Assembly (NCBI GenBank): GCA_035760825.1
Contig: DASTSF010000199.1
Location: 1-34,245 of the forward strand
Source: Bacteroidia bacterium
GTDB taxonomy: Bacteria; Bacteroidota; Bacteroidia; Palsa-965
Length of the DNA: 34,245 nt
Direction of reading: 5' to 3'
Below, piece by piece: positions 6,190 through 25,653 of this stretch; position 1 is the stretch's first letter, and each line of letters starts with the position of its first letter. The notes beneath the pieces were generated by a model that was given only the letters and a program-made list of their open reading frames with translations, made no database searches and was not told the DNA's origin. A program made the translations under genes and the position numbers.

Positions 6190-6216
6190 AAAAGCGGATC
6201 GCAGTGATCCGCTTTT
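6190..6216. terminator. Bidirectional terminator between convergent genes
   Basis: aaaagcggatc-gcagt-gatccgctttt: a 7-bp GC-rich stem extended by an A4/T4 flank, so it is usable from either strand. It sits between the mce stop (6168) and the minus-strand gene stop (6239). Confidence 0.7.
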
Positions 6217-6238
6217 CGCATTTAAGAACGAAGCTTGT

Positions 6239-7924
6239 TTACGGATGAGCGACAACGATTCTTGCTGTCGAGCTTTTCCCGTTGTTGAGCATTGTCACGA
6301 AATAAACACCGTTCGCCCAGCCCGAAACATCGAACTGCTCGGTGTGGTTTCCCGGACCTGATCCGTCAGGCCGGCGTGTTTCCACAACCTCTCCGAGCGT
6401 ATTGGTAACCGTGAACAGCACGGCGTTATTATCGCTGGTGGAATAATTCAGCGTAAAAGAAGAAGAGGATGGATTCGGGAAAAGTCCCGTGATGGAAGCT
6501 CCCCCGGCCTCGCTGATGGAAGAGGTCAGGTATTCCGCATCGAACATCGCCACACCATTCGATCCTGCACCTTCCGCAATCCACGCATGCGCGGTTTGCG
6601 TGAGCATGGGATTGATCTCCACACGCGGCCAAGCCGCCCTGAGGTTACCGGTCATGTCGTTGTATTGCGGAGTGATGTAGTTCCACGTATTAGGGGCGAC
6701 AAGATTATTTCCATTCACACAATACGGAAGTTTTCCATCCGTGGAATCATAATAAACGGTGAGAAAATTATCATAGCCCGGATCATAGCTGATGTCCGGC
6801 TGAAGATCATTTTCCCCTGAGTTGACGATGTCGAGGCGGTTCCAGAAGTTAGTGTAGTGAGCCCGTTTATTGTAAAAGCCCAGCAGGTCATAATCGGTAC
6901 CGTTCCCGTAAAAATCGCGCTGGCAAAGAACGACCGCTGTAACTGAAGAGCTGTCGTTATCCGTGCCGTTGAATTGAACGGCGATCTCAGGATTGCAGCA
7001 GAGGTTGATCATGGAAGAAGAAATTGAATCGAGGTTGACCGGCGGTATCCAGGCGTCATTCACCGTAGACGTGCTCCGCGAGGTGTAGATATGACCTGTG
7101 CGGTCACCGGAAGACGTCAGCATTTCCCATGCCCCGAAATAGCGGCCGTTGGATGCGCTCGCACTGCGCCCGTAGGCAAGCGAAACATTCCGGAAATAAT
7201 ACCCGGTTGTCATCACGGACTGACGCACACTCCATGTTCCGCCGCCGTCAACTGACCCGAGAAACACCATCGAATCGACCGAGCTGCTGTAAGCAGAATA
7301 AAGAAGCCCGACGCTGTACGGGCTCGCACCGACCGCCGGAAAGCGGTAATCGGAAGCGAGAGCAACGTCATATATTCTCCGCGTTCCGTTCTGCAGGTTG
7401 TAATTGCTGCCGATGAAGCTGCCGGTTGTTGCATTGTAACGGTCAACAAACAGAACATAGTTCCCGGACGTCGTATTATGATTCACTCCCGCGAGATACA
7501 GCGTAAGATTATTCGTATCCGTTCCGCAGACGACGATGTCGAACGCAGGATAAACGATGTTCTGCGGACTATAGCTGTCGACGGTCGTCCAGGTCATCCC
7601 GTTGTCGCGTGAACTGCGGATGGTAATTCCGCCGGCAACTCCGGCCGAGTCATACGTGGAATAAGCCGCATACACCCAGCCGTTGAATGCAACGCTGATG
7701 CGGACCCTGCGCTGATCGATCGCCGGCGCGTTCTGGATAATAATGTCGTTCCCGTACTGAACCGTAGGTGCCGAAGGTGTGCGCGCGTCGTTGTGCGTTT
7801 CGCTTTGAGAAGCTCTGATAGTCTGCAAAAAACCTCCCGCCGGTATGGGCTGGCGGCCCGTCTGCGCGGAAAGCATGGTACATGCTCCCAGCATGGCGAT
7901 AAACGATAAGTAAATTGTTTTCAT
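6239..7924 (-). CDS. Secreted BNR/Asp-box repeat protein with T9SS C-terminal sorting domain
   Basis: 561 aa with a signal peptide. Asp-box motifs SRDNGMTWT and SVDGGGTWS (S-x-D-x-G-x-T-W). C-terminal tail LFPNPSSSSFTLNY…GVYFVTMLNNGKSSTARIVV is typical of T9SS cargo. Confidence 0.75.
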   Translation of the reverse strand: MKTIYLSFIAMLGACTMLSAQTGRQPIPAGGFLQTIRASQSETHNDARTPSAPTVQYGNDIIIQNAPAIDQRRVRISVAFNGWVYAAYSTYDSAGVAGGITIRSSRDNGMTWTTVDSYSPQNIVYPAFDIVVCGTDTNNLTLYLAGVNHNTTSGNYVLFVDRYNATTGSFIGSNYNLQNGTRRIYDVALASDYRFPAVGASPYSVGLLYSAYSSSVDSMVFLGSVDGGGTWSVRQSVMTTGYYFRNVSLAYGRSASASNGRYFGAWEMLTSSGDRTGHIYTSRSTSTVNDAWIPPVNLDSISSSMINLCCNPEIAVQFNGTDNDSSSVTAVVLCQRDFYGNGTDYDLLGFYNKRAHYTNFWNRLDIVNSGENDLQPDISYDPGYDNFLTVYYDSTDGKLPYCVNGNNLVAPNTWNYITPQYNDMTGNLRAAWPRVEINPMLTQTAHAWIAEGAGSNGVAMFDAEYLTSSISEAGGASITGLFPNPSSSSFTLNYSTSDNNAVLFTVTNTLGEVVETRRPDGSGPGNHTEQFDVSGWANGVYFVTMLNNGKSSTARIVVAHP

Positions 7925-10670: not shown

Positions 10671-11995
10671 TAACCGCGGTTATTATTTCGGGCATTATCG
10701 CGCTGGCCTGTGCCGGGTTTTCAGTGTATGCGCTTCTTTCGCGGAACAGGATGAGATCGGCGTTCGACGGGCTGAACAAGCAGATCAACAATTACCAGAG
10801 CATCATCGACCAGGCGAACGACGCCATGATCGTGATCGACATCGTGGACGGACGCATTCACCAGTCGAACCCCGGCGCCGCACAGCTGCTGGGTTATTCA
10901 CAGGAAGAGCTTTCGAAAAAATCGCTTTTCGATCTGCACCCGAAAGAAGACCTGGAAAGATCCTCGATGATCGTGGCGGATGTGTGGGAAAAAGGCGGAC
11001 TTATCTACAAAGACATCCCGTTCGTTACAAAATCAGGAGAAATTCTCCCGGTGGAATGCAGCGCGAAGGTCGCTCCTTTCGCCGGCCGTCCCGCTATCGT
11101 GATCTACGCACGGGACATCCGCGAACGCCTTAAGCTCGAAGGCGAGATCCAGCTGCAGAAAAACATCATCGAGCAGAAGAACAAGGATATCACGGACAGC
11201 ATCAATTATGCGAAACGCATCCAGGAAGCCATCCTGCCCACGGAAGAACAGATGAAAGAAGTGGCCCCGGATCATTTTGTTTTTTACCGTCCGAAAGATA
11301 TCGTCAGCGGGGATTTTTACTGGGCGACGAGCGTAACCACCACAGATCCTTCGCGGCCCGACCAGAAAAAATATTCCCTCATCGCCGCGATCGATTGCAC
11401 CGGCCACGGCGTTCCCGGGGCATTCATGAGCATCGTGGGCCACACCATACTCGAGCAGACGATCACCGACCCCGACGTGAACAGCCCGGCCCAGGCGCTG
11501 GATTTTCTCAATCGCGGGGTGATCAAAACGCTCAAGCAGAAAGCGAACGATGATTTTTCCGTGAAGGACGGAATGGATATGGCCTTCTGCGCCATCGACC
11601 CGGAAAAACGGATCCTCAATTTCGCCGGGGCGAACAATCCCGTTTATATCATTCGCGGCGGGCAACTCATTGAGCTGTCCGGGGACAAACAGCCGATCGG
11701 CGCGTACATGAAAGATGTCGCCCCGTTCACCGATAAAAGTTTCCAGCTCGAAAAAGGTGATTGCATCTACATTTTCACGGACGGCATCGCCGACCAGTTC
11801 GGCGGACCGAAGGGAAAAAAATTCAAATACAAACAACTGCAGCAACTGCTGGTGAACATTCATTCGCAGAATATGGACCAGCAGAAAAAAACCATCGTTA
11901 AAACGGTGGAGGACTGGATGAGCTTCCCCACGCCATCGGGAGGAACGTTCGAGCAGACAGACGACATGCTTATCATCGGCGTACGGGTTTCCTGA
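10667..11995 (+). CDS. TM + PAS sensor SpoIIE/PP2C-family protein phosphatase
   Basis: 442 aa. One N-terminal TM helix, then a PAS-like segment (IIDQANDAMIVIDIVDGRIHQSNPGAAQLLGYSQEEL) and a coiled-coil linker. PP2C motifs: DIVSGDFYWA, DCTGHGVPGAFMS, DGMDMAF, TDGIADQFGG, DDMLIIGVRV. Its ATG overlaps the upstream stop (ATGA at 10667-10670). Confidence 0.85.
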   Translation: MITAVIISGIIALACAGFSVYALLSRNRMRSAFDGLNKQINNYQSIIDQANDAMIVIDIVDGRIHQSNPGAAQLLGYSQEELSKKSLFDLHPKEDLERSSMIVADVWEKGGLIYKDIPFVTKSGEILPVECSAKVAPFAGRPAIVIYARDIRERLKLEGEIQLQKNIIEQKNKDITDSINYAKRIQEAILPTEEQMKEVAPDHFVFYRPKDIVSGDFYWATSVTTTDPSRPDQKKYSLIAAIDCTGHGVPGAFMSIVGHTILEQTITDPDVNSPAQALDFLNRGVIKTLKQKANDDFSVKDGMDMAFCAIDPEKRILNFAGANNPVYIIRGGQLIELSGDKQPIGAYMKDVAPFTDKSFQLEKGDCIYIFTDGIADQFGGPKGKKFKYKQLQQLLVNIHSQNMDQQKKTIVKTVEDWMSFPTPSGGTFEQTDDMLIIGVRVS

Positions 11996-12009
11996 ATTTT
12001 CCATAACGC

Positions 12010-13944
12010 ATGACCAGCGAAGAGCGAGCAGGAATCGAAAAAATGCTTGCCGGCGGAGTGAGCGGCCGGGAGCGCGTTGACCTGCTCAATAAAGTGGCCG
12101 TGGAATACCGGTTTTCAGAGCCGCAGCGTTTCTGCGATTATGCGACGGAAGCCTGCACAGCTGCGGAAGAGATCGGGTACACGGAAGGTCTTGCACGTGC
12201 AGAACGGCATCTCGGCTATTTCTACGAGCAACAGGCCGATTACCCGAAAACACTTTCCTATTGCAGCAAAGCGCTCGAACATTACAAGTCCGTGCCCGGC
12301 TTATCGACGGAGATCATCGCAACAAACAACCTGGTTGCGAAAGTTTATGCCAACCTCGGCGATTTTACCAAAGGGCTGGAATACCTCTACGAAAGTCTAC
12401 GGCTGTCGGAAGAAACGGGAAACAAAACGGCGGAAACCAACACGCTGAATTCGATGAGCGTTCTTTACCAGCGTCTGGGGAATGCAGCAAAAGCGGAGGA
12501 ATGCGCTTCGCGCGGCCTGACGCTGGCGGCAGAGCTAACCGACCAGCGTGTGCTTGGCGTGACGATGGTGAATCTCGGCAATGCGTACGGCATGACCAAA
12601 GACTGGACGCGCGCGCTCGAACAGTGGAAAACGAGTCTTTCTATTTTTGAAAAGCTCGGCGACGAAGACCTGCAATCGAGCGTGCTCGGGAACATGGGCA
12701 TTACGCACATGAACCTCGGCGAATACGATCGCGCTGATGAATACCTCTCGCGCTGCCTTGCCATCAAAAAACAAACGGGCAACCGGTACGACGTGGCACG
12801 TTCGCTGCAGAACCTCGCTTCCGTCAGCAGCTCGATGAAGCAATACCGGAAATCGCTCGATTATTGCCGCGAAGGTCTTGAGCTCGCGGCGCTGGTTGAT
12901 GCACGTTCGCTCGAATACCAGCTGTGGTATGAAATGGCGGCCGCGTATAAAGGTCTCGGCGATTTTGAGAATGCGCTGACGTGCTTTGAAAAATACCATT
13001 CGCTGGAAAAAGAAATTTTCACGGAAGAGATGCGCCTGAAAACGGATGCGCTCCAGCTGCGTTTCGCCATTGAAAAATCAGAAAAAGAAAAAGAGATCTA
13101 CCGGCTGAAGAACATCGACCTTGCCGAGGCGAACGAAAAGATCACGATCCAGAAAGAAGTAATCGAGGAAAAGAACCGCGACATCACGGCCGGCATACGA
13201 TATGCGCAGCGCATCCAGGAAGCGTTGCTGCCGCAGGAAAGCGCGTTACGCCATGGATTCAGCGAAGCTTTCGTGGCATATTTTCCACGCGACATCGTGA
13301 GCGGCGATTTTTACTGGTCGCTCATCAGCGAGGACGCGGTTCTTTTTGCCGCAGCCGACTGCACGGGACACGGTGTTCCGGGCGCGCTCATGAGCGTGAT
13401 GGGCGCGGCGTTCCTTTCCGAGATCGTCAATGAGCGCGGCGTCACCGATCCTGCGGAAGCGCTGAACCTGCTCCGCCTGAAAGTCATCACCGCGCTGCAG
13501 GGAAAGGAAGAACGCGATGCCACCGAAAGCGGTTTACGCGACGGGATGGACATCGTGCTGTGCCGGTACGAACCGGCTTCGCGGCTGCTCCGTTTTGCCT
13601 GTGCGAACAACCCGCTGTGGCTGCTGCGCAAAGGAAACATTACAGAATTCGGGGCGGATAAATTCCCTGTCGGACTGCATCACGGCGCAATGATGAATTT
13701 CACCACGCGGCAGGTCACGCTCCAGCCCGGCGACCAGCTTTTCCTTTTCACCGATGGTTTTGCAGACCAGTTCGGCGGAACGAAAGAAAAAAAATTCGGG
13801 TACCGCCGCCTGCGTGAGCTGTTCGTTTCCATAGCGGGTCTTGCGGCGGCGGAACAAAAAGCCGCTCTTGAAAAAGCCTTCCGCGAATGGAAGGGAGAGA
13901 ACGACCAGGTAGATGATCTGCTGGTGATCGGCGTTAAAGCCTGA
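12010..13944 (+). CDS. TPR-repeat sensor SpoIIE/PP2C-family protein phosphatase
   Basis: 644 aa. The N-terminal ~330 aa contain repeated TPR-like units (…YANLGDFTKGLEYLYESL…, …LGNAYGMTKDWTRALEQW…, …HMNLGEYDRADEYLSRCL…). A coiled coil and PP2C motifs follow: DIVSGDFYWS, DCTGHGVPGALMS, DGMDIVL, TDGFADQFGG, DDLLVIGVK. Confidence 0.85.
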   Translation: MTSEERAGIEKMLAGGVSGRERVDLLNKVAVEYRFSEPQRFCDYATEACTAAEEIGYTEGLARAERHLGYFYEQQADYPKTLSYCSKALEHYKSVPGLSTEIIATNNLVAKVYANLGDFTKGLEYLYESLRLSEETGNKTAETNTLNSMSVLYQRLGNAAKAEECASRGLTLAAELTDQRVLGVTMVNLGNAYGMTKDWTRALEQWKTSLSIFEKLGDEDLQSSVLGNMGITHMNLGEYDRADEYLSRCLAIKKQTGNRYDVARSLQNLASVSSSMKQYRKSLDYCREGLELAALVDARSLEYQLWYEMAAAYKGLGDFENALTCFEKYHSLEKEIFTEEMRLKTDALQLRFAIEKSEKEKEIYRLKNIDLAEANEKITIQKEVIEEKNRDITAGIRYAQRIQEALLPQESALRHGFSEAFVAYFPRDIVSGDFYWSLISEDAVLFAAADCTGHGVPGALMSVMGAAFLSEIVNERGVTDPAEALNLLRLKVITALQGKEERDATESGLRDGMDIVLCRYEPASRLLRFACANNPLWLLRKGNITEFGADKFPVGLHHGAMMNFTTRQVTLQPGDQLFLFTDGFADQFGGTKEKKFGYRRLRELFVSIAGLAAAEQKAALEKAFREWKGENDQVDDLLVIGVKA

Positions 13945-15237: not shown

Positions 15238-15398
15238 TGTGAAAACAAAGGTACTGGTTAGTGGTCGGAATGATTGGTTAATTTATTTTAAACGGGAGAA
15301 AATATCGCCGGGAAAAGATTTATCTGTGCCTGCATCAGCTCAATGAATGCGCCTGTTTGCGGTTTTTGAGATATGCTCTACCTTTCGCTTCCCGTGGA

Positions 15399-18300
15399 AT
15401 GAAACACCTGCTCTCCTTTTTTCTTTCGCTTGCACTTTCTTCGCTTGCCGCGCAGGAAACAGGACAATTCCGCCACTACACCACGGAAGATGGTCTTTCG
15501 CAGAATTCCGTTTACTCCATTGTGCAGGACCGCCAGGGATTTATGTGGATGGCCACACAGGACGGCCTCAGCCGTTTCGACGGTTATCGCTTCGAGGTTT
15601 TTCATCCGGATGCTGCCGATTCCAATTCACTTTCGAACAACAGCGTGCGCTGCCTCCTTGTCGCACGCGACGGACTGATCTGGATCGGGACGCGGGACGG
15701 CCTGAACGTTTTCGACCCGGTGAAAAAAAGGTTCTCGCATTTTTTCAAAGCGAAGAACGGATTGATCTCGGGAAATATTCTCAGTCTTGCGCAGGACAGC
15801 TCAGGCAACATCTGGGTGTCTTCGCTTCATGAAGGCGTCAGTGTCTACAACCAGCAGAAAAAAACATTCTCGTATTTCCGCCACGACGACAGTAACCCGA
15901 ATTCCCTCTGCGGGAACGACGTACGCGGCATGTGCTGCGATCATAACGGGCACATGTGGCTCGTCACCTGGTCGAACGGCATGAGCGAATACGACCCTTC
16001 TTCCGGAAAATGGACAACCTTTTCCAGCGGGGGCGGACCGGGACAGCTTTCGCATCCCAACAGCCGTGGCGCCATCTGCGCCGACAGCAAAGGAAGGATC
16101 TGGATCGGCACGTGGGGCCGCGGGCTCGACATGTGGGATCCGTCGAAGCACGAAATGTTTTCCGAAGACCGCAACACGCCGGAACTTCCGCAGATGCGCT
16201 CGGGTCTTGTGTGGTCGGTTTATGAAACAAGGAACGGGCACATCTGGTTCACGACAGCGGAAAAAGGCGTTTATGATTTCGATCCCGCCACCGGCCATTA
16301 CAGGAATTTCATCCACGATGCAGACGATCCTCGCTCCATCAACGACAACAGCATCTGGTCGATCACCGAAGACCGGAGCGGGCTCATCTGGACAGGCGCC
16401 TGGCAGGGCGGCGTGAACGTGTACGATCCGCGCATGGAACGTTTCGCGCTGTTCCGCGTAAACCCGAACGACAGCAACAGTCTTCCCGCGAATGTGACGT
16501 GGACCTTCTGCACGGACGGCGCCGGCGGAATATGGATGGGAACAGCGGCAGGACCGGTTCATTACGACCCGGTGACGAAACAGTTCCGGCAGCCTCCGCT
16601 CGACGATCCGGATCACAAAGTGCTTTACAAAAACGCTCCTACGCCGCGCTCGAACATACAGGCGCTTTGCCGCGACGGAAACGGCAACATCTGGATGGGA
16701 ACAGCCGGGGCAGGATTGCACTGCTATGATCCCGTTACGAAAACCTATGACCTTTACATGCCCGAAGAAAACAACGATGCTTCGCTCACCGGCAATACGG
16801 TTAACTCGCTTACGACAGATGAAGAGGGAAACGTCTGGGTTTGCTGCGGCAGCAGTCCTTTCCAGCGTTTCGACCCGGTCAGAAAAGCGTTTGAAAATTT
16901 TCCTTTTGCAAAAGGAGATTCGATCAGGCCCAACGACGGACCGGTCTGCAGCATCTCCGGCGGACCTGGAAAAATGATCGTCGGTCTCACAGGCGGAGAA
17001 GTTTTCGAGCTCGATGTAAAAACGCGGAAGTATACGCTCATCTGGAAATCTCCTTCCGATGTTTCCGTTACGAGTCTCTGCAGGGACAAGCTTGGCAGCC
17101 TGTGGATCGGCATGGGCGGATCGGGACTGATGTTCATCAACGGAAAAACGCAGACGCTGTTTACCGATAAAGATGGCTTGCCGAATGATTTCATCAACGG
17201 AATTATTCCCGGGGATAACGGCGAATTATGGCTAAGCACGAACCGCGGGATCTGCCGCTTTGATCCTGTGAAGCATGACGTACGCATTTTTACGACGGAA
17301 GACGGGCTGCAGGCGAACGAATTCAACCAGGGCGGCGCCTTCCGTTCGCACGACGGAAGGATCTGGTTTGGCGGCGTGAACGGCATCTCGGCATTTTTCC
17401 CCGACCAGATCACACCGAACACCTCTCCCGCCGCGGCGATCATCACATCGCTGACCGTGCTTAACAAAAAAATCCCGCTCGACAGCGACATCACGTTCAC
17501 GAAAGAGATCCGTCTTTCCTGGCGCGATTATTTTTTCTCGTTCGAGTTCAGCGGACTTGAATTCACCAACCCTGAGCGTAACCAGTATAAATACATGATG
17601 GAAGGTTTCGATGACGACTGGGTGGATGCCGGCACGCGGAGATTCGCCACCTATACGAATCTCGATCCCGGCGAATACACCTTCCGCGTTAAAGCGTCGA
17701 ACAACGACGGCAACTGGGACGGCCGCGAAGCGCGCATTCACATCATCATAACACCGCCCTTCTGGAAAACAAAATGGTTCTATACGCTCTGCGGAATTTT
17801 CATGCTGCTGTCTGTCGTCGGTTACATCCGCTGGCGCGAACGGAAACTGAGAAAAGAGAAAGAGGTGCTCGAATCGAAAGTGACGGAACGCACGTACGAG
17901 CTGCAGCAGGAAAAAGAAAAAGTAACCGCCGCGCACAAAGACATCCGCGACAGCATCAACTACGCGCAGCGCATACAGTATGCGCTTCTCTCGCACGACG
18001 AGCTGCTGAAGAAAAACCTGCCGGAGCATTTTATTTTCTTCCGCCCGAAAGACGTTGTCAGCGGCGATTTTTACTGGGCCACGCAGCAGGGACCCGTTTT
18101 CTGGCTCGCCGTCTGCGACAGCACGGGGCACGGTGTTCCCGGCGCATTCATGAGCCTGCTGAATATTTCCTACCTCAACGAAGCCATCATTGAAAAGAAA
18201 ATGACAGAGCCCGGCGCCGTTTTCGATTATGTACGGAGCCGCCTTATTGAAAATATTTCACAGGATGGCGGCAAGGATGGAATGGACGCGATCCTGCTGA

Positions 18301-18677
18301 AGATCGACCATGAAAAAAACACGATCACGTACGCCGCAGCGCACAATGCCCCGGTTGTAATCGTCAATGGAAATACGCTGGTGACGGAAACTGATAAAAT
18401 GCCGGTAGGCAAAGGAGAGCGAACCGATCACTTCAAAACACGAACGCTGGAAACCGTTCCCGGTGAAATGATCTACCTTTTTACGGACGGCTGTGCAGAC
18501 CAGTTCGGCGGACCGGCGGGGAAAAAATTCAAAGAGGTCAACCTGCGAAAAAATCTCGCGGAAATTTCTGCGCTTCCGGCGGGCGAACAGCGCAGCCGGC
18601 TGGAAAAAACGTTCGAAGACTGGAAAAGCCATCATGAACAGGTAGACGACGTGCTGGTGATCGGTGTGCGAATCTGA
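15399..18677 (+). CDS. Periplasmic beta-propeller / Y_Y_Y sensor + TM + SpoIIE/PP2C phosphatase
   Basis: The track ORF starts at a TTG (15357). I prefer ATG at 15399, which gives signal peptide MKHLLSFFLSLALSSLAAQE. Many two-component-regulator-propeller repeats are present (…G.IW.GT..GL..YD…). A YKYMMEGFDDDW…YTFRVKASNNDGNW (Y_Y_Y) domain and a TM helix (WFYTLCGIFMLLSVVGYI) follow. The coiled coil and PP2C motifs are VVSGDFYWA, DSTGHGVPGAFMS, DGMDAIL, TDGCADQFGG, DDVLVIGVRI. Confidence 0.85.
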   Translation: MKHLLSFFLSLALSSLAAQETGQFRHYTTEDGLSQNSVYSIVQDRQGFMWMATQDGLSRFDGYRFEVFHPDAADSNSLSNNSVRCLLVARDGLIWIGTRDGLNVFDPVKKRFSHFFKAKNGLISGNILSLAQDSSGNIWVSSLHEGVSVYNQQKKTFSYFRHDDSNPNSLCGNDVRGMCCDHNGHMWLVTWSNGMSEYDPSSGKWTTFSSGGGPGQLSHPNSRGAICADSKGRIWIGTWGRGLDMWDPSKHEMFSEDRNTPELPQMRSGLVWSVYETRNGHIWFTTAEKGVYDFDPATGHYRNFIHDADDPRSINDNSIWSITEDRSGLIWTGAWQGGVNVYDPRMERFALFRVNPNDSNSLPANVTWTFCTDGAGGIWMGTAAGPVHYDPVTKQFRQPPLDDPDHKVLYKNAPTPRSNIQALCRDGNGNIWMGTAGAGLHCYDPVTKTYDLYMPEENNDASLTGNTVNSLTTDEEGNVWVCCGSSPFQRFDPVRKAFENFPFAKGDSIRPNDGPVCSISGGPGKMIVGLTGGEVFELDVKTRKYTLIWKSPSDVSVTSLCRDKLGSLWIGMGGSGLMFINGKTQTLFTDKDGLPNDFINGIIPGDNGELWLSTNRGICRFDPVKHDVRIFTTEDGLQANEFNQGGAFRSHDGRIWFGGVNGISAFFPDQITPNTSPAAAIITSLTVLNKKIPLDSDITFTKEIRLSWRDYFFSFEFSGLEFTNPERNQYKYMMEGFDDDWVDAGTRRFATYTNLDPGEYTFRVKASNNDGNWDGREARIHIIITPPFWKTKWFYTLCGIFMLLSVVGYIRWRERKLRKEKEVLESKVTERTYELQQEKEKVTAAHKDIRDSINYAQRIQYALLSHDELLKKNLPEHFIFFRPKDVVSGDFYWATQQGPVFWLAVCDSTGHGVPGAFMSLLNISYLNEAIIEKKMTEPGAVFDYVRSRLIENISQDGGKDGMDAILLKIDHEKNTITYAAAHNAPVVIVNGNTLVTETDKMPVGKGERTDHFKTRTLETVPGEMIYLFTDGCADQFGGPAGKKFKEVNLRKNLAEISALPAGEQRSRLEKTFEDWKSHHEQVDDVLVIGVRI

Positions 18678-18815: not shown

Positions 18816-18889
<74 letters not shown>

Positions 18890-18890
18890 C

Positions 18891-18921
18891 AATGCGTCAG
18901 TTTCCAAGAAGCTGGCGCATT
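18891..18921 (+). terminator. Hairpin directly after the tRNA (terminator-like)
   Basis: aatgcgtcag (18891-18900) pairs with ctggcgcatt (18912-18921): 10 bp with one G.U and an 11-nt loop. It is followed by ttcattt. Confidence 0.45.
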
Positions 18922-19009
18922 TTCATTTGGGTGGTTTGCCGATCAGGAAGGCGACTTGTGGCGGCTTTGCCGCGCATCTCTCGCTACGAATGTCCACCGG
19001 ACATTCGCT

Positions 19010-19037
19010 TAACGCGCGTTCTCCCTCTGGGCCCACA
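19010..19037 (+). repeat. Decayed duplicate of the tRNA 3' end (att-like direct repeat)
   Basis: The 16-nt stretch tccctctgggcccaca at 19022-19037 is identical to 18876-18891 (T-stem 3' strand, acceptor 3' strand, discriminator and 2 nt beyond). Upstream similarity continues, degraded: cgcgcgttc versus cgcgggttcaag. Confidence 0.7.
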
Positions 19038-20240
19038 GGATAAACGTAACGTAGTCGCCCGATTGCGTGGCGTTTGGGTTTCCGGGCGAAAAGGAGTGCC
19101 GGTAAGTGCAGTGTAAGAGCGGATGCACACGAAAGAGAAACGATCTTGAAGGAGTTGAGAAATGTATCCCGGAAAATAAAGTGCTTACTGTCGCCGGGTG
19201 ATACTATGTTTCTTTCTATAAATACTGTTTGAGTTTCGCGCCTCAGGTATATACGGTCCTCAATCCTCAACTGCATTTTTGGTCAAATTCATCACGGAGG
19301 AAATACCCATTACGAGCGCGGCGGCCCTCAGCCGGTTTTTTTGTGTGTTGAATTTCATTGCGCGGGAATTAGTTGTATGAATCGCCGGAATTCCTTTACA
19401 TGCATTGCCATCGCTGCCTGAAGCCTGTGCACCCGTTTCAGCTCTGCCGGTTCCCGGAATGTTTTTAACTGCGAAAGGTCCTTCTGCAGGAAAAAATTAC
19501 CTGCTGCCGGGAACCTCTTTTCCCGGCAAGAGTCCGAACCCTGCTTTCACCCGCATAAAAAGACTGCGTAATGGTTCCAGTATCTTTTTCGCCGCCGTCT
19601 GCAGAAATCGCTTCCGGTTTTTCCCCGGGGCGCCGCTGGTTTCCTTGTCCATTGCCAGCCGGTAAATGCCGTTTATGAATTGCCCGGAAGCAAGATAATC
19701 CGCTACGGACCGGTTCCTGTCCGAAATAACGGACTGCTTTTTCCCGGAGGGACCATTGACGGTTTTCACCTGAAGATTGTTCTCATAGAAATTCCTGTAC
19801 GGCCTGTAGGGCCGTATGTTCGGCGAGTAGGTTTGCATAACCGCTTTGTATGGTTTTATGCCGGCCGTGTAATTCATTGCCGGCATGCGCCCGTTATTTG
19901 CAGCTGCAAAGGTTTTTTGTTCATAATTTGCATCCGGAATTTTTTAAAAAATACAAAAATTCATCACTGCCTGTCATGAAATCGTAAAATATTCCGGTCC
20001 CTGCAAATCTTCCTGTTATTTATCATTATCATTACATCAATAACCGGGGTGTAATGACCTGATTCAATGATCCCTGATCACAGGTTGTGTTATCCGTCCG
20101 TAAAATTATCCGCCTGCATCGCATTTTTGAAAATATGTTTCCGGTAATCGATTATTGGTTTACTTTAGTAATATAATAATCGCATTATTTAAAGTATTAA
20201 ATAAAAAAACACTAATCAAACCCAACTTAAAAAAAGATTT

Positions 20241-20912
20241 ATGGCAGAAACTGCTTTAGTATCGATGGCCCAGCAATTCACCGGGCTGCCGATGGATGCG
20301 CTGATCGGCGCTCCTTTGAATGCCGCGGCGAACGCAAACGCCGCAATGGCGATCACACAGACAAAGTTCATGCTCGACACCTGCTTTTCACGCCAGGGTG
20401 ACGACAAAACCGGGTACAACTACACGCCGATCATGATCAAGATGTCGCTTACGCGCGGCGTGATCACACCTGGAGACCCCAACGCCAACCCGCCCACAAA
20501 GACGGATATCCAGAGCGTGACGACGACATTCGACCTCCCGCTGCTGACCATTATTCCGCTGAACTCGCTTGGCGTGGATAATGTCAATGTCACGTTCGAA
20601 ATGGAAGTTAAATCCAGCTTCGCCGAAGAACAATCCGAAGCGACGGAAAAAAACATCCAGGCCGAAACCAGCTTCGAGGTGAAAGTGGGCTGGGGCCCGG
20701 TTTCTGCCACGGTGAAAGGCAGCGCCAGCTACGACCAGAAAGATTCTTCGAATCACAGCACACACTACGAAAAAAGCAACTCGGCGAAATACACGGTACT
20801 CGTTCATGCCGGCCAGCTTCCACTGCCGAAAGGCGTGAACACCATCATCGAAGCCTATACAATGGCTATTCAGCCCGTCACGATGCCCGTTGTGACGCCG
20901 CCCAAATCCTGA
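20241..20912 (+). CDS. DUF2589-like protein, paralogue A (function unknown)
   Basis: 223 aa, ATG start, no signal peptide or TM segment. Motifs GLPMDALIGAPLNAAANANAAMA, TTTFDLPLLTIIPLNSLGVDNVNVTFEMEV, VKVGWGPVSATVKGSAS and AKYTVLVHAGQLPLPKGV match my memory of the Pfam DUF2589 family (not HMM-verified). The 3'-neighbour gene is clearly paralogous. Confidence 0.8.
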   Translation: MAETALVSMAQQFTGLPMDALIGAPLNAAANANAAMAITQTKFMLDTCFSRQGDDKTGYNYTPIMIKMSLTRGVITPGDPNANPPTKTDIQSVTTTFDLPLLTIIPLNSLGVDNVNVTFEMEVKSSFAEEQSEATEKNIQAETSFEVKVGWGPVSATVKGSASYDQKDSSNHSTHYEKSNSAKYTVLVHAGQLPLPKGVNTIIEAYTMAIQPVTMPVVTPPKS

Positions 20913-20928
20913 CCAGGCCGGTAAGGCA

Positions 20929-20965
20929 GCCGGCGCATAAACCCGCCGGTTGCTTTTATTTTGTG
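20929..20965 (+). terminator. Intra-operon terminator/attenuator candidate after paralogue A
   Basis: gccggcg (20929-20935) pairs with cgccggt (20944-20950): 7 bp including one G.U, with an 8-nt loop. It is followed by tgcttttattttgtg. Confidence 0.45.
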
Positions 20966-21020
20966 CCTGTTTCTGGAGCAGGTTTTTCCGAGGGCATCTA
21001 TCCTGTAACATTCATTGCCT

Positions 21021-21656
21021 ATGGCAAATTTTCAAACGAAAACGCTGGACCCTTCCGACTATTCGGGATCCGACATCGCGGCGATCATCGGGGCTCCACT
21101 CGTGGCGGCCGCACATGCAAATGCGATGATGGCCCGGGAGCAGATCAAGTTCCTGATGTCTTTCTGCTTTTCGAAAACCGGTGAAGTGTACGAGCCGGTG
21201 ATGATCCGCATGTCCATGACCAAAGGCGTGCTTACTCCTTCCGACGAAAAAGACAAACCTCCGTTCATCCAGCAGCTGACAACGACGTTTGAAATTCCCC
21301 TGCTTACGGTCATTCCCATCAACTCCCTTGCCGTGCAAAGCATGGAAGTTAATTTTGACCTCGAAGTGACTTCACATATCAACGTGCCCTCTTCGCGAAA
21401 TTCCCCCGGGAACCTGAAACCGGATCATAAATCCGTTCGCATGATGGGAAAGATCAGCAGCTCTCCCGGTGACGGACAGGGTACGGATAAAGACTATTAC
21501 GACAAAACGGGCGCATCGACATTGAAGGTGAACATCAAATCGGGACCGCTGCCGTTGCCTAAAGGGCTCGCTTCGGTGCTCGAGGTTTATTCCAAGAACA
21601 TTCATCCCGTAGAACTCAATCCTGGCGCCGATACTGCACAAACCGACAAAAAATAA
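21021..21656 (+). CDS. DUF2589-like protein, paralogue B (function unknown)
   Basis: The track ORF begins at TTG 21015; I prefer ATG 21021 (MANFQTK…). The protein aligns collinearly with paralogue A: IIGAPLVAAAHANAMMA, TTTFEIPLLTVIPINSLAVQSMEVNFDLEV, LKVNIKSGPLPLPKGL. There is no signal peptide or TM segment. Confidence 0.8.
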   Translation: MANFQTKTLDPSDYSGSDIAAIIGAPLVAAAHANAMMAREQIKFLMSFCFSKTGEVYEPVMIRMSMTKGVLTPSDEKDKPPFIQQLTTTFEIPLLTVIPINSLAVQSMEVNFDLEVTSHINVPSSRNSPGNLKPDHKSVRMMGKISSSPGDGQGTDKDYYDKTGASTLKVNIKSGPLPLPKGLASVLEVYSKNIHPVELNPGADTAQTDKK

Positions 21657-21713
21657 CATTCCCCGGTAATCTGCCGGCCGGAACAGCGTCTATTCATCCG
21701 ACAAAAAAACAAC

Positions 21714-21932
21714 ATGAGCGATCAACTCAGCATTCCCTGCCCCGACTGTAAAACACCCATCCCGTTCGACCCCCGGATGCTTATCCAGGGCGCGCAGTTC
21801 TCCTGTCCCAAATGCAAAGCATTTCTGGGCCTCGCATCAGAGAGCAAGGAAATTGTACGCGAGTCGCTGGATAAATTCGACAAGATGAAGAGCGAAGTGC
21901 TGAAAGCCAAAGGAGACACGACCGGGTTTTAA
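21714..21932 (+). CDS. Small zinc-ribbon protein (72 aa)
   Basis: CPDC…(17 aa)…CPKC forms a four-Cys ribbon, followed by a charged helical tail ESKEIVRESLDKFDKMKSEVLKAKG. ATG start. The ORF ends 11 nt before the next gene. Confidence 0.65.
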   Translation: MSDQLSIPCPDCKTPIPFDPRMLIQGAQFSCPKCKAFLGLASESKEIVRESLDKFDKMKSEVLKAKGDTTGF

Positions 21933-21943
21933 CTGCTATTGTT

Positions 21944-22450
21944 ATGATAAGTTTCAAAGCTTTTATCGAAGGTATCAACAGTGCGATCGTCGCTGCGAAT
22001 GACGACCTGATGAACAAGCACGAGGAGATTCTTGATACGTATTTCGAAAAAACAGGAGAGGACAAAACGGACGGACACGAAGGTCATTCCACGCTGCGGC
22101 CGAAATCCGTCTGCATTCAATATCCCAAAATGGAGGTTGACGGCTCCATTACCATGATCGACGTGGACGTTCCGCTCGTCACGCTCATTCCCATCGAGTT
22201 CACCAAGATCGACAAAGTCAAAATAACCGCACAGTTCGGATTGCAGGTAATAAATAATGACCTGCAGATCATTTTTTCCAATGAGGCGCCCAAAAAGAAA
22301 TGGAGCCTGTTCGGCGGATCAAAAACGGATGACAAAACGCCCTCGCCGGGACAGCTTGAAATAACGATCCGCCCTTCCGAAACGCCCGAAGGACTCAAAA
22401 AAATGATCGACGGGTACGATAAAGTGCTGCGCGCACAGATCCCGCACTGA
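21944..22450 (+). CDS. Divergent DUF2589-like protein, paralogue C (function unknown)
   Basis: 168 aa. It is collinear with A and B. FKAFIEGINSAIVAANDDLMNKHEEILDTYFEKTGEDK aligns with MDALIGAPLNAAANANAAMAITQTKFMLDTCFSRQGDDK. DVDVPLVTLIPIEFTKIDKVKITAQFGLQV aligns with TFDLPLLTIIPLNSLGVDNVNVTFEMEV. The C-terminal ETPEGLKKMIDGY aligns with LPLPKGVNTIIEAY. Confidence 0.75.
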   Translation: MISFKAFIEGINSAIVAANDDLMNKHEEILDTYFEKTGEDKTDGHEGHSTLRPKSVCIQYPKMEVDGSITMIDVDVPLVTLIPIEFTKIDKVKITAQFGLQVINNDLQIIFSNEAPKKKWSLFGGSKTDDKTPSPGQLEITIRPSETPEGLKKMIDGYDKVLRAQIPH

Positions 22451-22492
22451 TCTTTTCCGCAACAGGTTTTTTTCTCATTAAACCGCAAAACG

Positions 22493-23017
22493 ATGCCTTC
22501 ATTATCCGGGTTCCCCGCCGCAAAACAGGAAGATCCCAATTCCTGCTGGGCCTGCGCTTCGCGCGAAATAAGCAACTATTACAAGTCGCTCGGAAAAGGC
22601 GGAAAAAACGAAATGTATTCTTCCGACAAGGAACTCGCCGCAGCGTGGTCGAAGATCACGGGTAAACCGGGCAACGCGGATATCAGCATCCAGCAATCGG
22701 CATCAGCCGCCCTCGGGGATCTCGGCTATACGAATTCCGCTGACAGCGCCCCGGTTCCAACGGTCGGTGAGATCACGGACGCGATCAACGACAAGAAACC
22801 CCTGCTTGCCATTGTCGGAAGCACCGATCCGAAAGGTAAACGCAAGCTCGGTTACCAGCAGGGTCATTGGGTCGTAATCACGGGCATTTCCGACAAAGGC
22901 GATCTCATCGAAGTCTTCGATCCCGACAGTGGAAAAATCGAAACCGTAGCCTACAGCAGCCAGGTCTACAAAAGCGGCATGTTCTGGCAAAACACCTCGT
23001 ACGTTGACGGCCAGTAA
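22493..23017 (+). CDS. Leaderless papain-fold (clan CA, C39-like/C70-like) cysteine peptidase
   Basis: 174 aa. Gln12-x5-Cys18 within KQEDPNSCWACASR (Cys codon 22544-22546), His125 within QQGHWVVITG (codon 22865-22867), then Asp143/Asp145 within VFDPDSG. This is the Q/C/H/D arrangement of small papain-like peptidases. No signal peptide. Confidence 0.75.
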   Translation: MPSLSGFPAAKQEDPNSCWACASREISNYYKSLGKGGKNEMYSSDKELAAAWSKITGKPGNADISIQQSASAALGDLGYTNSADSAPVPTVGEITDAINDKKPLLAIVGSTDPKGKRKLGYQQGHWVVITGISDKGDLIEVFDPDSGKIETVAYSSQVYKSGMFWQNTSYVDGQ

Positions 23018-23033
23018 ATGCCGGAAGATGATC

Positions 23034-24656
23034 TCACCACGCCACTTTCTGCGTGATCCGGTTTTCTTCATCACCGAACACGACCAGGAACATATCGTGT
23101 GAAGGAACGGCAAGCGGAATAACATTGTCGCCGTTTCCCGAAACGGTTTCGTATACGAGGCGCCCGGAAGAATCGAAAATGGAAATATGCATTTCACTGC
23201 TCCAGTTCGCAGAACGATAGTGGATCCCTGTTCCGTCATACCACGCGTTTGCATATACGCGGTCTGTTTCTGCCGTGACGGAAATGATCGCACTTACGAT
23301 TGACGCGCCGTTGAAATCGGTCCACCGCAGGCGGTAATAATTCTGCCCGGGAAGCGGCGTCACATCGGTGAACTCATATTCAACCGGCTGGCTCGTGGTT
23401 CCGCTTCCGTTCACCGTCCCGATCGCTGTGAAATTTCCGTCGGCGCCTGCACGTTCCACCGTGAAGAACGAATTGTTGTTCTCCGATTCTGTTGTCCAGC
23501 TGAGCACAACGCTTCCTCCCTGCACCTCGCCGGAAAATACGGACAGCTCGATGGGAAGCACCGTGAACGTGGTGCAGCCGGTATTGATATACGTTGCGCT
23601 GTGCCCGGCCGAACCGAAATACGCCATTTCCCCGTTGTTGTTCGGGATCGCTCCGCGATTGTAATAATTCGTATCGACGCAGCCGGTGGCGTTGTTGCGC
23701 AACATGGCATCGCGCGGGCACGCCTGGCCCGTGCAGGCCCCGTTGTTCCCGAATCGTCCGTTGTTATCGCTCGTGTTGTTTGCAAAAACGGCGTAGTACG
23801 TCAATCCGGTGCTGCACAGGTTACTGAAGTTGTACGTATAGGTCGGCGGCGCTCCCGCAAACACAATGAAGTTTCCACCGGCAGGGATCACATTTCCCGG
23901 CGGCGCCATGAAAAGAGTTCCACAACCGGCCATGGTATTCAGGCTGGCTATGTATGTGTTCGTCGCAGCATTGTTCACGAAAAAATTATCGCAGGGATTT
24001 CCGGTCGTTCCGCAATACGTGCATCCTCCGTTCGAGCCTACATCGGAAAATGTGATCTCGAGATCGGAAAGGTTCATCGCAGGTCCTCCGTTGGCGCAGG
24101 AAACAAATTCGTCGTAACCTTCATCCGATCCGCATGCATCGGCCATGATGCCCGTGATAGAAAGCTGGCCCGAGCAAAATCCTGCTGCACGCACTTTGAC
24201 ATCGTCGAAAGCGCAGTTCGCCACCACTTTTGTATACGTGAAACGAAGACGGGTGACGTTCGATGCCAGCGGGAATACAAAAACTTTCGCTGTCGTCTGT
24301 GGATAAGCGCGGCCCACCGTCGTCCATGAAGAACCGTTCCAGCCTTCGATGAGAAAATTGTCGGTCGTGGGTGTAGATCCGTTCCCGCGCGTGAAGAATG
24401 TCACTTCATCCGCGCTTCCCGACCATGCGGGGCTCAGCGCAATTTCACCGCTTCCGTCGAATTTGACGGATGGGGATGACCGGCCATAATTCGCCGAAGA
24501 TGTATAGGTGGAAGAGATGGATGTGAATGTCCATCCGGCAGGAGCTGCAGGAGCCGCGTTAAACTCTTCATCGATTAGGAATGCCTGGGCGTTCGCTTTG
24601 ACACAGAAAATAGTCAGCGCGAGAAGCGCAAAGAAAAATATACGCGTGCCTTTCAT
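23034..24656 (-). CDS. Secreted lamin-tail-domain-like protein with T9SS C-terminal sorting domain
   Basis: The track ORF extends to 24737; I prefer ATG 24656, giving signal peptide MKGTRIFFFALLALTIFCVKANAQ. An LTD-like stretch is present (LSITGIMADACGSDEGYDEFVSCANGGPAMNLSDLEITF). The C-terminal tail MHISIFDSSGRLVYETV…MFLVVFGDEENRITQKVAW is typical of T9SS cargo. Confidence 0.7.
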   Translation of the reverse strand: MKGTRIFFFALLALTIFCVKANAQAFLIDEEFNAAPAAPAGWTFTSISSTYTSSANYGRSSPSVKFDGSGEIALSPAWSGSADEVTFFTRGNGSTPTTDNFLIEGWNGSSWTTVGRAYPQTTAKVFVFPLASNVTRLRFTYTKVVANCAFDDVKVRAAGFCSGQLSITGIMADACGSDEGYDEFVSCANGGPAMNLSDLEITFSDVGSNGGCTYCGTTGNPCDNFFVNNAATNTYIASLNTMAGCGTLFMAPPGNVIPAGGNFIVFAGAPPTYTYNFSNLCSTGLTYYAVFANNTSDNNGRFGNNGACTGQACPRDAMLRNNATGCVDTNYYNRGAIPNNNGEMAYFGSAGHSATYINTGCTTFTVLPIELSVFSGEVQGGSVVLSWTTESENNNSFFTVERAGADGNFTAIGTVNGSGTTSQPVEYEFTDVTPLPGQNYYRLRWTDFNGASIVSAIISVTAETDRVYANAWYDGTGIHYRSANWSSEMHISIFDSSGRLVYETVSGNGDNVIPLAVPSHDMFLVVFGDEENRITQKVAW

Positions 24657-25052
24657 GGCTGGGTCGGGAAAATGTATGAGGAATTTATCCGGCAGGTGGT
24701 TTCGGCTGATCCGGGAAAGCGGATGCTTCAAGGGCATTCACCTGTATTGAATTTCGCCAAAGGTATTCCGGGCCCCGAAACTTTCTGTTAGCGCTGTGTG
24801 ATAGTTGCGTGAACGGAAGAAAAAGAAGTTACGGTCCGTTTACATCGATGTGCTGACAGCCTTGTGCCGCTTCCGCATCGCGGTGAAAACGATACGGGGC
24901 GCCGGTGCTTAATGCGCAGGTCATGCGGGAGAGAATACCCGCCAGTTGCTTTCCGCCGCCGAACGACAGAATGCCCGGGTGGCAGGAACATAAAGCGCTG
25001 CATCACGAAACAAGCAGAACAGCGAAGAGAAAAAGGGCTTCACAAACAATAG

Positions 25053-25625
25053 CTACAAAAGGCGGATCACATTCCGGTCTATGGTTTCTGCGAAATGGGC
25101 ATGCTCCAGCTGCTGCACCCGCGCAGACAACGTCTCCGGTGTGTCGCCGGGAAGCACGGGACACGTAAACTGCGCGATGTGCTTTCCGTCGTCGAATTTT
25201 TCATTCACGAAATGAATAGTAACCCCGGTTACTTTTTCTCCTGAAGCGAGCACGGCTTCATGCACTTTTTTGCCGTACATCCCTTTGCCGCCGAATTTCG
25301 GGAGAAGCGCCGGGTGAATGTTGACGATCTTTCCGGGGAATGCAGAAATGACCGCGGGCGGTATCAGCCAGAGAAACCCGGCAAGGACAATAAGATCGAT
25401 GCCGCGCTCTTTCAGCTGCGGAACAATGGAATGTTCCGAAAAAAATTGTTCGCGGTCGGTAAGCAGCACTTCCACTCCGTGCTCCTTCGCGATGGAAATA
25501 ACGCCCGCCTGCGGGTTGTTGCATACGAGCAGCGTTACCTGTGCGTTGTGATGAGGTTCGAAATACTCAATGAGGTTCCGGGCATTGGTGCCCGTTCCTG
25601 AAGCGAAGACCGCAATTCTTTTCAC
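25053..25625 (-). CDS. purN: Phosphoribosylglycinamide formyltransferase
   Basis: KRIAVFASGTGTNARNLI, LIVLAGFLWLIP, IVNIHPALLPKFGGKGMYG and GVTIHFVNEKFDDG are classic PurN motifs. The track start (25640) is a TTG; GTG at 25625 (VKRIAVF) fits the family N-terminus better. Confidence 0.9.
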   Translation of the reverse strand: MKRIAVFASGTGTNARNLIEYFEPHHNAQVTLLVCNNPQAGVISIAKEHGVEVLLTDREQFFSEHSIVPQLKERGIDLIVLAGFLWLIPPAVISAFPGKIVNIHPALLPKFGGKGMYGKKVHEAVLASGEKVTGVTIHFVNEKFDDGKHIAQFTCPVLPGDTPETLSARVQQLEHAHFAETIDRNVIRLL

Positions 25626-25653
25626 GGCGCAAAAATACAAATAGGAACGGCGC

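Follow-up and report, generated by a model that had tools for sequence, protein, structure and literature searches.

What kind of system is built from three paralogous proteins of a single domain family, a small zinc-ribbon protein and a cysteine peptidase, and do all five genes belong to it? The question is raised by positions 20,241 to 23,017 of contig DASTSF010000199.1 (assembly GCA_035760825.1) from a Bacteroidia bacterium of the Palsa-965 lineage, which we analysed over its whole 34,245 nucleotides (nt), hereafter the window. Five genes follow one another there on the + strand. Three of them, A (20,241–20,912; 223 amino acids, aa), B (21,021–21,656; 211 aa) and the divergent C (21,944–22,450; 168 aa), encode DUF2589 paralogues; Z (21,714–21,932) encodes a 72-aa zinc-ribbon protein with a C-terminal helix, and the last gene (22,493–23,017) a 174-aa papain-fold cysteine peptidase. 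An earlier note on this DNA, written without database searches, had treated the five as one cassette with a protease of its own, and its coordinates, shared orientation and intergenic gaps (102 or 108, 57, 11 and 42 nt along A-B-Z-C-peptidase) agree with the list of open reading frames (ORFs). Comparison across genomes shows that the first four genes are a widespread, self-contained module, and that the five genes of the window are a version of it specific to their lineage, in which a lineage-restricted peptidase fills a variable slot at the 3′ edge.

A scan of GTDB, with one genome per species, returned 207 relatives of A, and the best 80 of these 207 loci were used in a set of 85 loci that includes the window, in which ORFs were classified by iterated profile searches. 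The best 80 loci span at least nine bacterial phyla, with A 51–76% identical, and come from Bacteroidota, Ignavibacteria, Chlorobi, Acidobacteriota, Cyanobacteria, Myxococcota, Planctomycetota, Firmicutes and the Alpha-, Beta- and Gammaproteobacteria. Across the 85 loci, the conserved unit is DUF2589(A)-DUF2589(B)-zinc ribbon-DUF2589(C) or a three-gene form of it: the four-gene order, with two DUF2589 genes followed by Z and a third DUF2589 gene, is present in 68, a three-gene arrangement (A-Z-C, C-A-Z or B-Z-A) in 13, and the other four are interrupted by contig ends. The zinc-ribbon gene was found in 82 loci, always within the cassette, and a C-type paralogue in 81; precomputed Pfam labels give the same gene order in Mucilaginibacter, Reichenbachiella and Aquimarina. 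No conserved fifth gene emerged from this set, in which 112 of 194 clustered neighbouring proteins were singletons and most neighbours were heterogeneous housekeeping genes. The linkage that had been proposed for all five genes therefore holds for the paralogues with the zinc ribbon, but not with the peptidase, since a peptidase of the C39/C70 type follows the cassette in only 2 of the 85 loci (the window and L047) and in three metagenomic contigs of close relatives.

The assignment of the three larger proteins to DUF2589, made in the earlier note, proved correct: all exceed the PF11655 gathering threshold of 23 bits, with scores of 98.1 for A (E 8e-28), 68.2 for B (E 1e-18) and 53.1 for C (E 6e-14). 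Identity within the window is 40% between A and B, and 26% over 94 residues between A and C. The ORF of B opens at TTG 21,015 (213 aa), and the ATG at 21,021 is favoured as its start because the homologues of B are, like the product from that codon, 211 aa long. A profile built from 75 A, B and C sequences matched 2261 clusters (50% identity) among 1.84 billion representatives, and the best 150 of the 2261 are all short single-domain proteins; A by itself has homologues in 1230 clusters, the best 120 of which are 63–81% identical to it, and the homologues of B are 34–72% identical to B. The four-cysteine zinc ribbon also stood up, with C9, C12, C31 and C34, together with G26, invariant in 60 homologues of Z. 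The two conserved CxxC pairs (CPxC…CPxC), spaced by about 15–20 residues as expected of a zinc ribbon, are predicted to bind zinc, and searches with Z against Pfam, NCBIfam, PHROGs and PDB returned only sub-threshold generic zinc-ribbon matches. The cassette products are likely cytoplasmic, as had been proposed: a simple Kyte-Doolittle hydropathy scan, used here in place of a dedicated signal-peptide predictor, gave maximum 19-residue means of 0.6–1.6 over the five proteins (A 1.17, B 1.63, Z 0.74, C 1.43) and no strong hydrophobic segment, the highest and borderline value belonging to the Ala-rich N-terminal helix of B.

The members of the module evolve at unequal rates. In a comparison of 400 pairs of loci, the mean pairwise identity of A was 62.8%, and those of B, Z and C were 35.5%, 40.8% and 38.8%, respectively. 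Because the values for B, Z and C are far lower in the same locus pairs, the high identity of A reflects selection on A and not recent transfer of the whole unit.

A second property that sets A apart lies directly 3′ of it, where a stem-loop with a T-rich tail resembles an attenuator or terminator (20,923–20,956, + strand). It begins 11 nt after the A stop codon and consists of a 13-bp stem with 8 G-C pairs followed by TATTTTGTGC. The segment from 20,908 to 20,975 has a minimum free energy of -30.3 kcal/mol (z = -3.8), and none of 200 shuffled sequences was equally stable. Across loci the gap between A and B is also the widest, with a median of 80 nt against 13 nt for B-Z and 15 nt for Z-C. 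We surveyed the best 45-nt hairpin in 64 loci in three regions, the gap after A, the inside of A and the region upstream of A, and obtained medians of -17.8, -12.6 and -7.4 kcal/mol, respectively. Hairpins in the A-B gap are thus more stable than those inside A (Mann-Whitney p = 2e-6) or upstream of it (p = 9e-14), and hairpins of -15 kcal/mol or below occur in 72% of the 64 post-A gaps, 34% of A genes and 8% of upstream regions. The stems of the post-A hairpins are unrelated in sequence across the 64 loci. A strong hairpin at this position suggests that A is an abundant major subunit and that the products of the later genes are minor.

What A might look like is only partly indicated by its AlphaFold2 (AF2) model, in which the mean predicted local distance difference test score (pLDDT) is 66 and a long helix (residues 18–48) and the strands of a beta-meander (49–100) are confident. 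Residues 124–180 fall below a pLDDT of 50 in this monomer model despite a near-invariant sequence, and the most conserved stretch of the protein covers about residues 148–200 (SFEVKVGWGPVSATVKGSASYD…HSTHY.KSNSAKYTV.VHAGQLPLPKG). An invariant amphipathic stretch resembling a beta-hairpin, SFEVKVGWGPVSATVKGSASY, also belongs to the poorly modelled region. A segment that is both the most conserved and unfolded in the model would fit a part of A that becomes ordered only in an oligomer; the low pLDDT could alternatively be a limit of the alignment. Many homologues of A carry C-terminal tails of variable length and low complexity, rich in Thr, Ser, Gly or Asn, and in one homologue 40 residues are inserted behind the N-terminal helix; tails and insertion are presumably surface-exposed parts of whatever A builds.

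No known fold could be attached to the family. A Foldseek search of PDB with the partly confident A model gave nothing below E = 2, and the 75-sequence DUF2589 profile matched no PDB sequence at E up to 10, so that gasdermin-like, phage-structural and other known folds were rejected as candidates. The absence of gasdermin similarity asserted in the earlier note is in line with this, Pfam giving only DUF2589 for A, B and C, and none of the three matched a characterised family such as a phage structural protein, a match that the note had named as evidence against novelty. A search of BFVD with A returned a single unnamed match (E 5e-4), probably a homologue. In public databases the homologues are named only 'DUF2589 domain-containing protein', and in the searchable literature on DUF2589/PF11655 we found two passing mentions and nothing functional, one of a DUF2589 gene in a meropenem transcriptome of Bacteroides fragilis and one of a DUF2589-related cluster, AF0414-AF0417, of Archaeoglobus fulgidus. 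The Pfam entry to which A, B and C belong describes a single domain and not a multi-gene unit; unlike that entry, the module described here combines two or three paralogues with an obligatory zinc-ribbon gene, unequal evolutionary rates and a hairpin after A, an architecture absent from the literature that we found to mention PF11655.

In other lineages, the slot that holds the peptidase in the window is repeatedly occupied by endolysin-type wall hydrolases (GH25, GH108, Rv2525c-like and M15). Eight of the nine GH25 genes found within 10 kb on either side of the 85 cassettes sit at most 340 nt from the cassette and on the same strand, upstream in four Pedobacter loci and downstream in L059, L063, L017 and L023, and all four Rv2525c-like matches fall within 2 kb. 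One locus (L001) has both a GH108+PG_binding_3 gene and an M15_4 peptidase, another (L084) a PG_binding_1+M15_4 gene 15 nt after the cassette, one Phage_lysozyme occurs among the neighbours, and annotated plasmid contexts contribute one further 'peptidoglycan-binding protein' downstream. As in phage endolysins, several of these adjoining hydrolases have no signal peptide, including the Pedobacter GH25+PG_binding_1, the GH108 of L001 and the Rv2525c-like proteins, and others have an N-terminal anchor only. Such a hydrolase adjoins the cassette in roughly 14–18 of about 80 loci; the window is not one of them, unless its peptidase acts on the wall. Regulators recur upstream of the cassette, with 9 Response_reg, 6 LytTR, 6 GerE, 4 HATPase_c (histidine kinase) and 3 AraC-type matches among 96 upstream proteins, and HisKA_3 kinase plus GerE response-regulator pairs stand directly upstream in several loci.

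A few single loci hint that toxin-type domains may also fill the variable slots. In L096, a 184-aa ORF after the cassette (6193–6747) has a sub-threshold cytidine-deaminase/MafB19-like match; considered as a diverged peptidase, it proved unrelated to that of the window. In L002 (Reichenbachiella), an ORF just upstream of A (7347–7775) has a weak Tox-HDC match. The same locus carries, co-directionally and a few genes downstream of the cassette, a homologue of pentameric ligand-gated ion channels (11,971–13,035; Neur_chan_LBD, Neur_chan_memb) and an ornithine/arginine decarboxylase.

The peptidase of the window was correctly recognised in the earlier note as papain-like with a catalytic Cys18. 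It exceeds the cut-offs of both Peptidase_C39_2 and Peptidase_C70 (30.0 and 24.3 bits, against 24 and 19, respectively), and classical Peptidase_C39 (PF03412) gave 14 bits, below its cut-off of 22. The predicted catalytic set, Q12, C18, H125 and D143, is invariant in 33 homologues and follows the clan CA order of oxyanion Gln, nucleophilic Cys, general-base His and a third acidic or amide residue, here Asp. Its AF2 model (pLDDT 96.3) has a papain fold by Foldseek, with matches at a TM score of 0.53–0.69, probability 0.99–1.0 and 10–16% sequence identity; staphopains A, B and C were matched at TM 0.64–0.69 and E ~3e-6, and further matches include the phytochelatin-synthase-like Alr0975, CdiA-CT (8ssm), 9l5u, 6hqz, PeiR and AvrRpt2. 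The enzyme is a new member of clan CA, nearest to C39_2/C70 by profile and staphopain-like by fold. It shares profile, Gln-Cys-His-Asp set and fold with the C39_2/C70 peptidases, the staphopains (C47) and the toxins 8ssm (contact-dependent inhibition, CDI) and 9l5u (toxin/immunity), but differs from these relatives in being a minimal 174-aa domain that starts at Met1 with no pro-region, from the toxins in having no delivery domain or adjacent immunity gene, and from classical C39 in standing alone, with no ABC transporter fused to it or next to the cassette.

Its family is small, comprising 38 clusters in 5.8 billion sequences searched, and as a query against the 85 loci the window peptidase matched only the window itself. 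The second locus with a peptidase of this type, L047, belongs to Prolixibacteraceae, in another order, and carries a divergent C39_2/C70 enzyme (E 1.7e-10) 9 nt after the cassette. Among the three contigs of close relatives, one from JGI reads A-B-Z-C-peptidase, with A 80% identical, and L089 and L090 (A 81% identical) read A-B-Z-C-peptidase-peptidase, the two tandem copies being diverged and 162 aa long each (L089 3805–4792, L090 3420–4407). The window and L089 are similar over precisely the stretch between the ATG of A and the stop codon of the peptidase, and their flanks are unrelated; the genes therefore travel as one block in this lineage. Elsewhere, more than 20 peptidase homologues are solitary in unrelated neighbourhoods (L085–L088, L093–L095 and 17 metagenome loci with no DUF2589 gene nearby). 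In one of these (L087; 3298–5772 and 7001–7531), three RebB (R-body) genes, preceded by a sigma-factor-like gene, are followed after about 1.2 kb by the solitary homologue P0147; the proximity may be coincidence. The linkage of peptidase and cassette is real and recurrent but rare, and the peptidase is an accessory and not a core component, which speaks against the private, dedicated protease of the earlier note, given its absence from 83 of the 84 other loci and its many solitary homologues. On this view the enzyme is not a universal activator; it may hydrolyse the wall or peptides, or process A and B locally.

Our tentative answer to the question of what the module does is a cytoplasmic multi-subunit assembly composed of A as the major subunit, B and C as minor ones and Z as a partner, working with an exchangeable hydrolase encoded at its edge; we consider this possible, though still short of probable. 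The hairpin right after A would attenuate read-through and leave A in excess over the downstream products, and A would polymerise or oligomerise in the cytoplasm to form a tightly packed assembly, with most residues of A engaged in contacts. B and C would be paralogous subunits of lower abundance, acting for example as cap, nucleator or adaptor, and the zinc-ribbon protein Z would be either a stoichiometric partner or an assembly factor. The module would then act with an envelope-directed hydrolase drawn from the variable edge slot, which may be the papain-fold peptidase here and an endolysin-type muramidase or M15 peptidase in other lineages, and it may often be controlled by the adjacent sensor or regulator gene. 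Among the roles considered in the earlier note, a self-assembling cytoplasmic structure and a membrane-active complex are both compatible with these observations, and a defence role found no support.

Gas-vesicle GvpA/J/M, the Bacillus endospore-appendage proteins Ena1A/B/C and the R-body Reb proteins likewise have several small paralogues in one operon, and the module resembles them in having one highly conserved, apparently over-expressed paralogue and no secretion signal. It differs from them in resembling no solved structure by sequence, profile or fold, in the absence of AAA+ or other assembly genes, and in its zinc-ribbon partner, for which they offer no counterpart.

Several points weigh against the assembly. 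That the DUF2589 proteins assemble at all is something we infer, as are the major role of A, the roles of the other subunits and the link to the envelope, and the model of A is only partly confident. The hairpin could simply be the terminator of a transcript that carries A alone, or could protect the mRNA from decay, and A could owe its high conservation to binding a target that is universal in cells. A wall hydrolase is absent next to the cassette in about 80% or more of the loci, so the envelope link draws on a minority of them, and some of the loci that do carry a hydrolase are phylogenetically related (the four from Pedobacter; L017 and L023). Finally, the closest structural relatives of the peptidase are staphopains, a phytochelatin-synthase-like enzyme and polymorphic-toxin domains, and not wall amidases of the NlpC/P60 or CHAP type. 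A bolder form of the same proposal, in which the module is an unrecognised yet widespread supramolecular structure (a filament, lattice or pore of novel fold, with A as its main building block) that controls how cytoplasmic wall-degrading enzymes reach the envelope and so permits regulated lysis or release in the absence of a classical holin, seems to us rather unlikely.

The association with wall hydrolases also allows A, with B, C and Z, to be seen as the functional equivalent of a holin, a pore-forming module that breaches the membrane on a regulatory signal and lets signal-less hydrolases, and in the window the peptidase, through to the wall. Cells would then lyse, or release material by lysis, in a regulated manner, with a logic like that of holin/endolysin pairs or LytSR-controlled Cid/Lrg, and the recurrent adjoining GH25, GH108, GH24-type and M15 enzymes, several of them signal-less, together with nearby LytTR and two-component regulators, resemble those systems. 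The ORF lists of the Pedobacter loci contain no small transmembrane holin candidate, the invariant amphipathic stretch of A lies in the region left unfolded by the monomer model, the N-terminal helix of B is borderline hydrophobic, and in one study of B. fragilis the level of a DUF2589 gene in the presence of meropenem modestly exceeded that reached once the antibiotic had been removed (log2FC 1.15; PMC11402942). Unlike in the known pairs, however, the hydropathy scan shows no transmembrane segment in any of the four core proteins, the family is essentially absent from phage collections, and most loci have no adjoining hydrolase. Holins and pore formers usually evolve fast, whereas A is among the most constrained proteins; its alternating hydrophobicity is also typical of any buried face of a beta-sheet, and the structural search with its model returned no known pore former. 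On balance, we regard a holin-like role as unlikely.

The presence of a protease beside small cytoplasmic proteins with no enzymatic function recalls bacterial gasdermin-protease operons, and the earlier note had drawn this analogy. The peptidase would cleave and activate one or more of the DUF2589 paralogues, and a candidate site is offered by the L-I-G-[GA]-P-L-N-A-A motif conserved near the N-termini of A and B, where cleavage would follow I-G-[GA] and precede P25; this motif loosely recalls the double-glycine leaders cut by C39 peptidases. The co-inheritance of peptidase and cassette as a block, the duplicated peptidase of L089 and L090, and the divergent peptidase at the same position in L047 would agree with such a pairing, as would an intact Q/C/H/D set in an enzyme with no predicted signal peptide, which therefore shares the compartment of A, B and C. 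Against it, I-G-[GA]-P is conserved in all loci, yet such a peptidase is missing from nearly all the others, its homologues are largely found alone, and the same slot is filled by muramidases and M15 peptidases in other lineages. Proline at P1′ is, moreover, unfavourable for most peptidases. Gasdermin operons have a single effector, whereas here there are three paralogues and a zinc ribbon with A ultra-conserved, the resemblance is confined to the lineage of the window, and no gasdermin model or fold was matched. Activation by proteolysis is thus not supported as a general feature and appears very unlikely as an explanation of the module; it could hold in the lineage of the window only, and maturation by proteolysis, another proposal of the earlier note, is at most a lineage-specific elaboration.

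An assembly of the kind we favour could also serve the envelope from the inside, coating or supporting the membrane on its cytoplasmic side when the cell wall is damaged, as PspA or LiaH do, with an adjacent LiaSR-like or LytTR regulator as its inducer. The HisKA_3 and GerE pairs upstream of several cassettes are of the LiaSR family, the genes lie close to wall-active enzymes, the signature of an abundant major subunit would fit equally well, and the meropenem data of PMC11402942 add a single transcriptomic mention. That mention is one weak data point, the regulators accompany a minority of loci, and no similarity to the PspA, Vipp1 or ESCRT-III fold was found, the confident part of the A model being a helix and a beta-meander. 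We therefore hold a stress scaffold to be a highly doubtful interpretation.

The surroundings of the cassette in the window bear on whether it arrived as a mobile element. As the earlier note had observed, an AT-rich leader and likely promoter region precedes A (19,890–20,240, + strand), with a GC content of 32% against 52.8% for the window, falling to 0.25 in its final 140 nt. It contains sigma-70-like hexamer matches at 20,077–20,106 and 20,127–20,155 and a relaxed match to the Bacteroidota -7-like element, TACTTTAG, at 20,161; an Rfam scan found no RNA family in it, a tRNA being the sole match. The GC content of the five cassette genes is 48.5–55%, which is host-like. The tRNA, a tRNA-Met, lies upstream of the cassette at 18,816–18,890, and its last 16 nt (TCCCTCTGGGCCCACA, 18,876–18,891) are repeated exactly 146 nt downstream at 19,022–19,037, where about 0.005 such repeats would be expected by chance in 6.6 kb. 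The repeat has the appearance of a trace left at the tRNA by an earlier integration or excision event, but the pair encloses only about 130 nt and no genes, and both copies are upstream of the cassette. The accessory slot that had been proposed between a tRNA with an att-like scar and purN is thus real in its landmarks, tRNA, repeat and a purN-like gene (Formyl_trans_N; 25,053–25,640, - strand) all being present, but the repeat does not bracket the cassette and a 567-aa ORF intervenes before the purN-like gene. That ORF (23,034–24,737, - strand) is convergent with the peptidase gene, their stop codons lying 16 nt apart; it has no Pfam match and, by eye, a signal-like segment at its N-terminus and a C-terminal stretch reminiscent of the sorting domains of type IX secretion. 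An imperfect 29-nt direct repeat (79% identity; 19,643–19,671 and 22,995–23,023) does bracket cassette and peptidase, its second copy covering the last codons of the peptidase gene, but it was rejected as a meaningful boundary and is probably a chance match, the exact seed being 10 nt long and about 20 such seeds being expected in 6.6 kb.

Further upstream, two large sensors end in SpoIIE/PP2C phosphatase domains, a TPR-SpoIIE protein (12,010–13,944, + strand) and a Reg_prop/Y_Y_Y-SpoIIE protein of 1106 aa (15,357–18,677, + strand), the latter ending about 1.5 kb upstream of the cassette. Two minus-strand ORFs between this sensor and A (18,923–19,276 and 19,497–19,886) are probably not genes, since they have no homology to the genes upstream of the cassette in L089 and no Pfam matches.

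Database searches for defence, phage and plasmid relatives were essentially negative. None of the five proteins matched PADLOC-DB 2.0 at E up to 1, and among 181 neighbouring proteins the matches were sporadic and formed no pattern, a comparison made with no formal background model; many were generic domain cross-matches, and the specific ones were Kiwa (one locus), AbiLi, an OLD-like ATPase and mads. PHROGs gave no meaningful match for A, B, C or the peptidase, INPHARED one weak partial match of A in 50,697 phage records, and IMG/VR none for A; in PLSDB, A was found in 6 of 72,556 plasmids, all non-mobilizable. An origin as a phage or mobile element was rejected on these results, and an island integrated at the tRNA on the position of the 16-nt repeats, the host-like GC and the absence of any integrase-like ORF from the window. 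An anti-phage or abortive-infection function, which the earlier note had entertained, or a phage or mobile-element remnant at the tRNA, is therefore extremely unlikely, for although the module is patchily distributed across phyla, lies near a tRNA with a repeated 3′ end, has defence genes upstream in a few loci and adjoins a transposase in one (L097), it matches nothing in the defence, phage or plasmid collections to any meaningful extent, is not bracketed by the repeat, and is led by a protein under strong purifying selection, unlike typical defence genes.

The core module, then, matches none of the kinds of system with which it was compared, namely gasdermin operons, holin-endolysin cassettes, catalogued defence systems, phage structural modules and tRNA islands. 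We provisionally rate it as lying outside the known kinds because it matched none of the systems tested and because the literature mentions its family only in passing. Annotation should accordingly treat the peptidase as lying outside the core system. From Bacteroidota to Cyanobacteria, Myxococcota and Proteobacteria, the lead protein A remains about 63% identical, which implies a function under strong and universal constraint, and the module is also present in Bacteroides of the human gut, B. intestinalis and B. cellulosilyticus being among the species that carry the cassette, although we found no solved structure, characterised relative or functional literature for it. This pattern of conservation, together with a coherent anatomy, makes the module a good experimental target. 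If the module does form a self-assembling structure, or a route for hydrolases that is independent of holins, it would be a new element of bacterial cell biology and of regulated lysis, with a bearing on the formation of membrane vesicles, the release of public goods and antibiotic-induced lysis.

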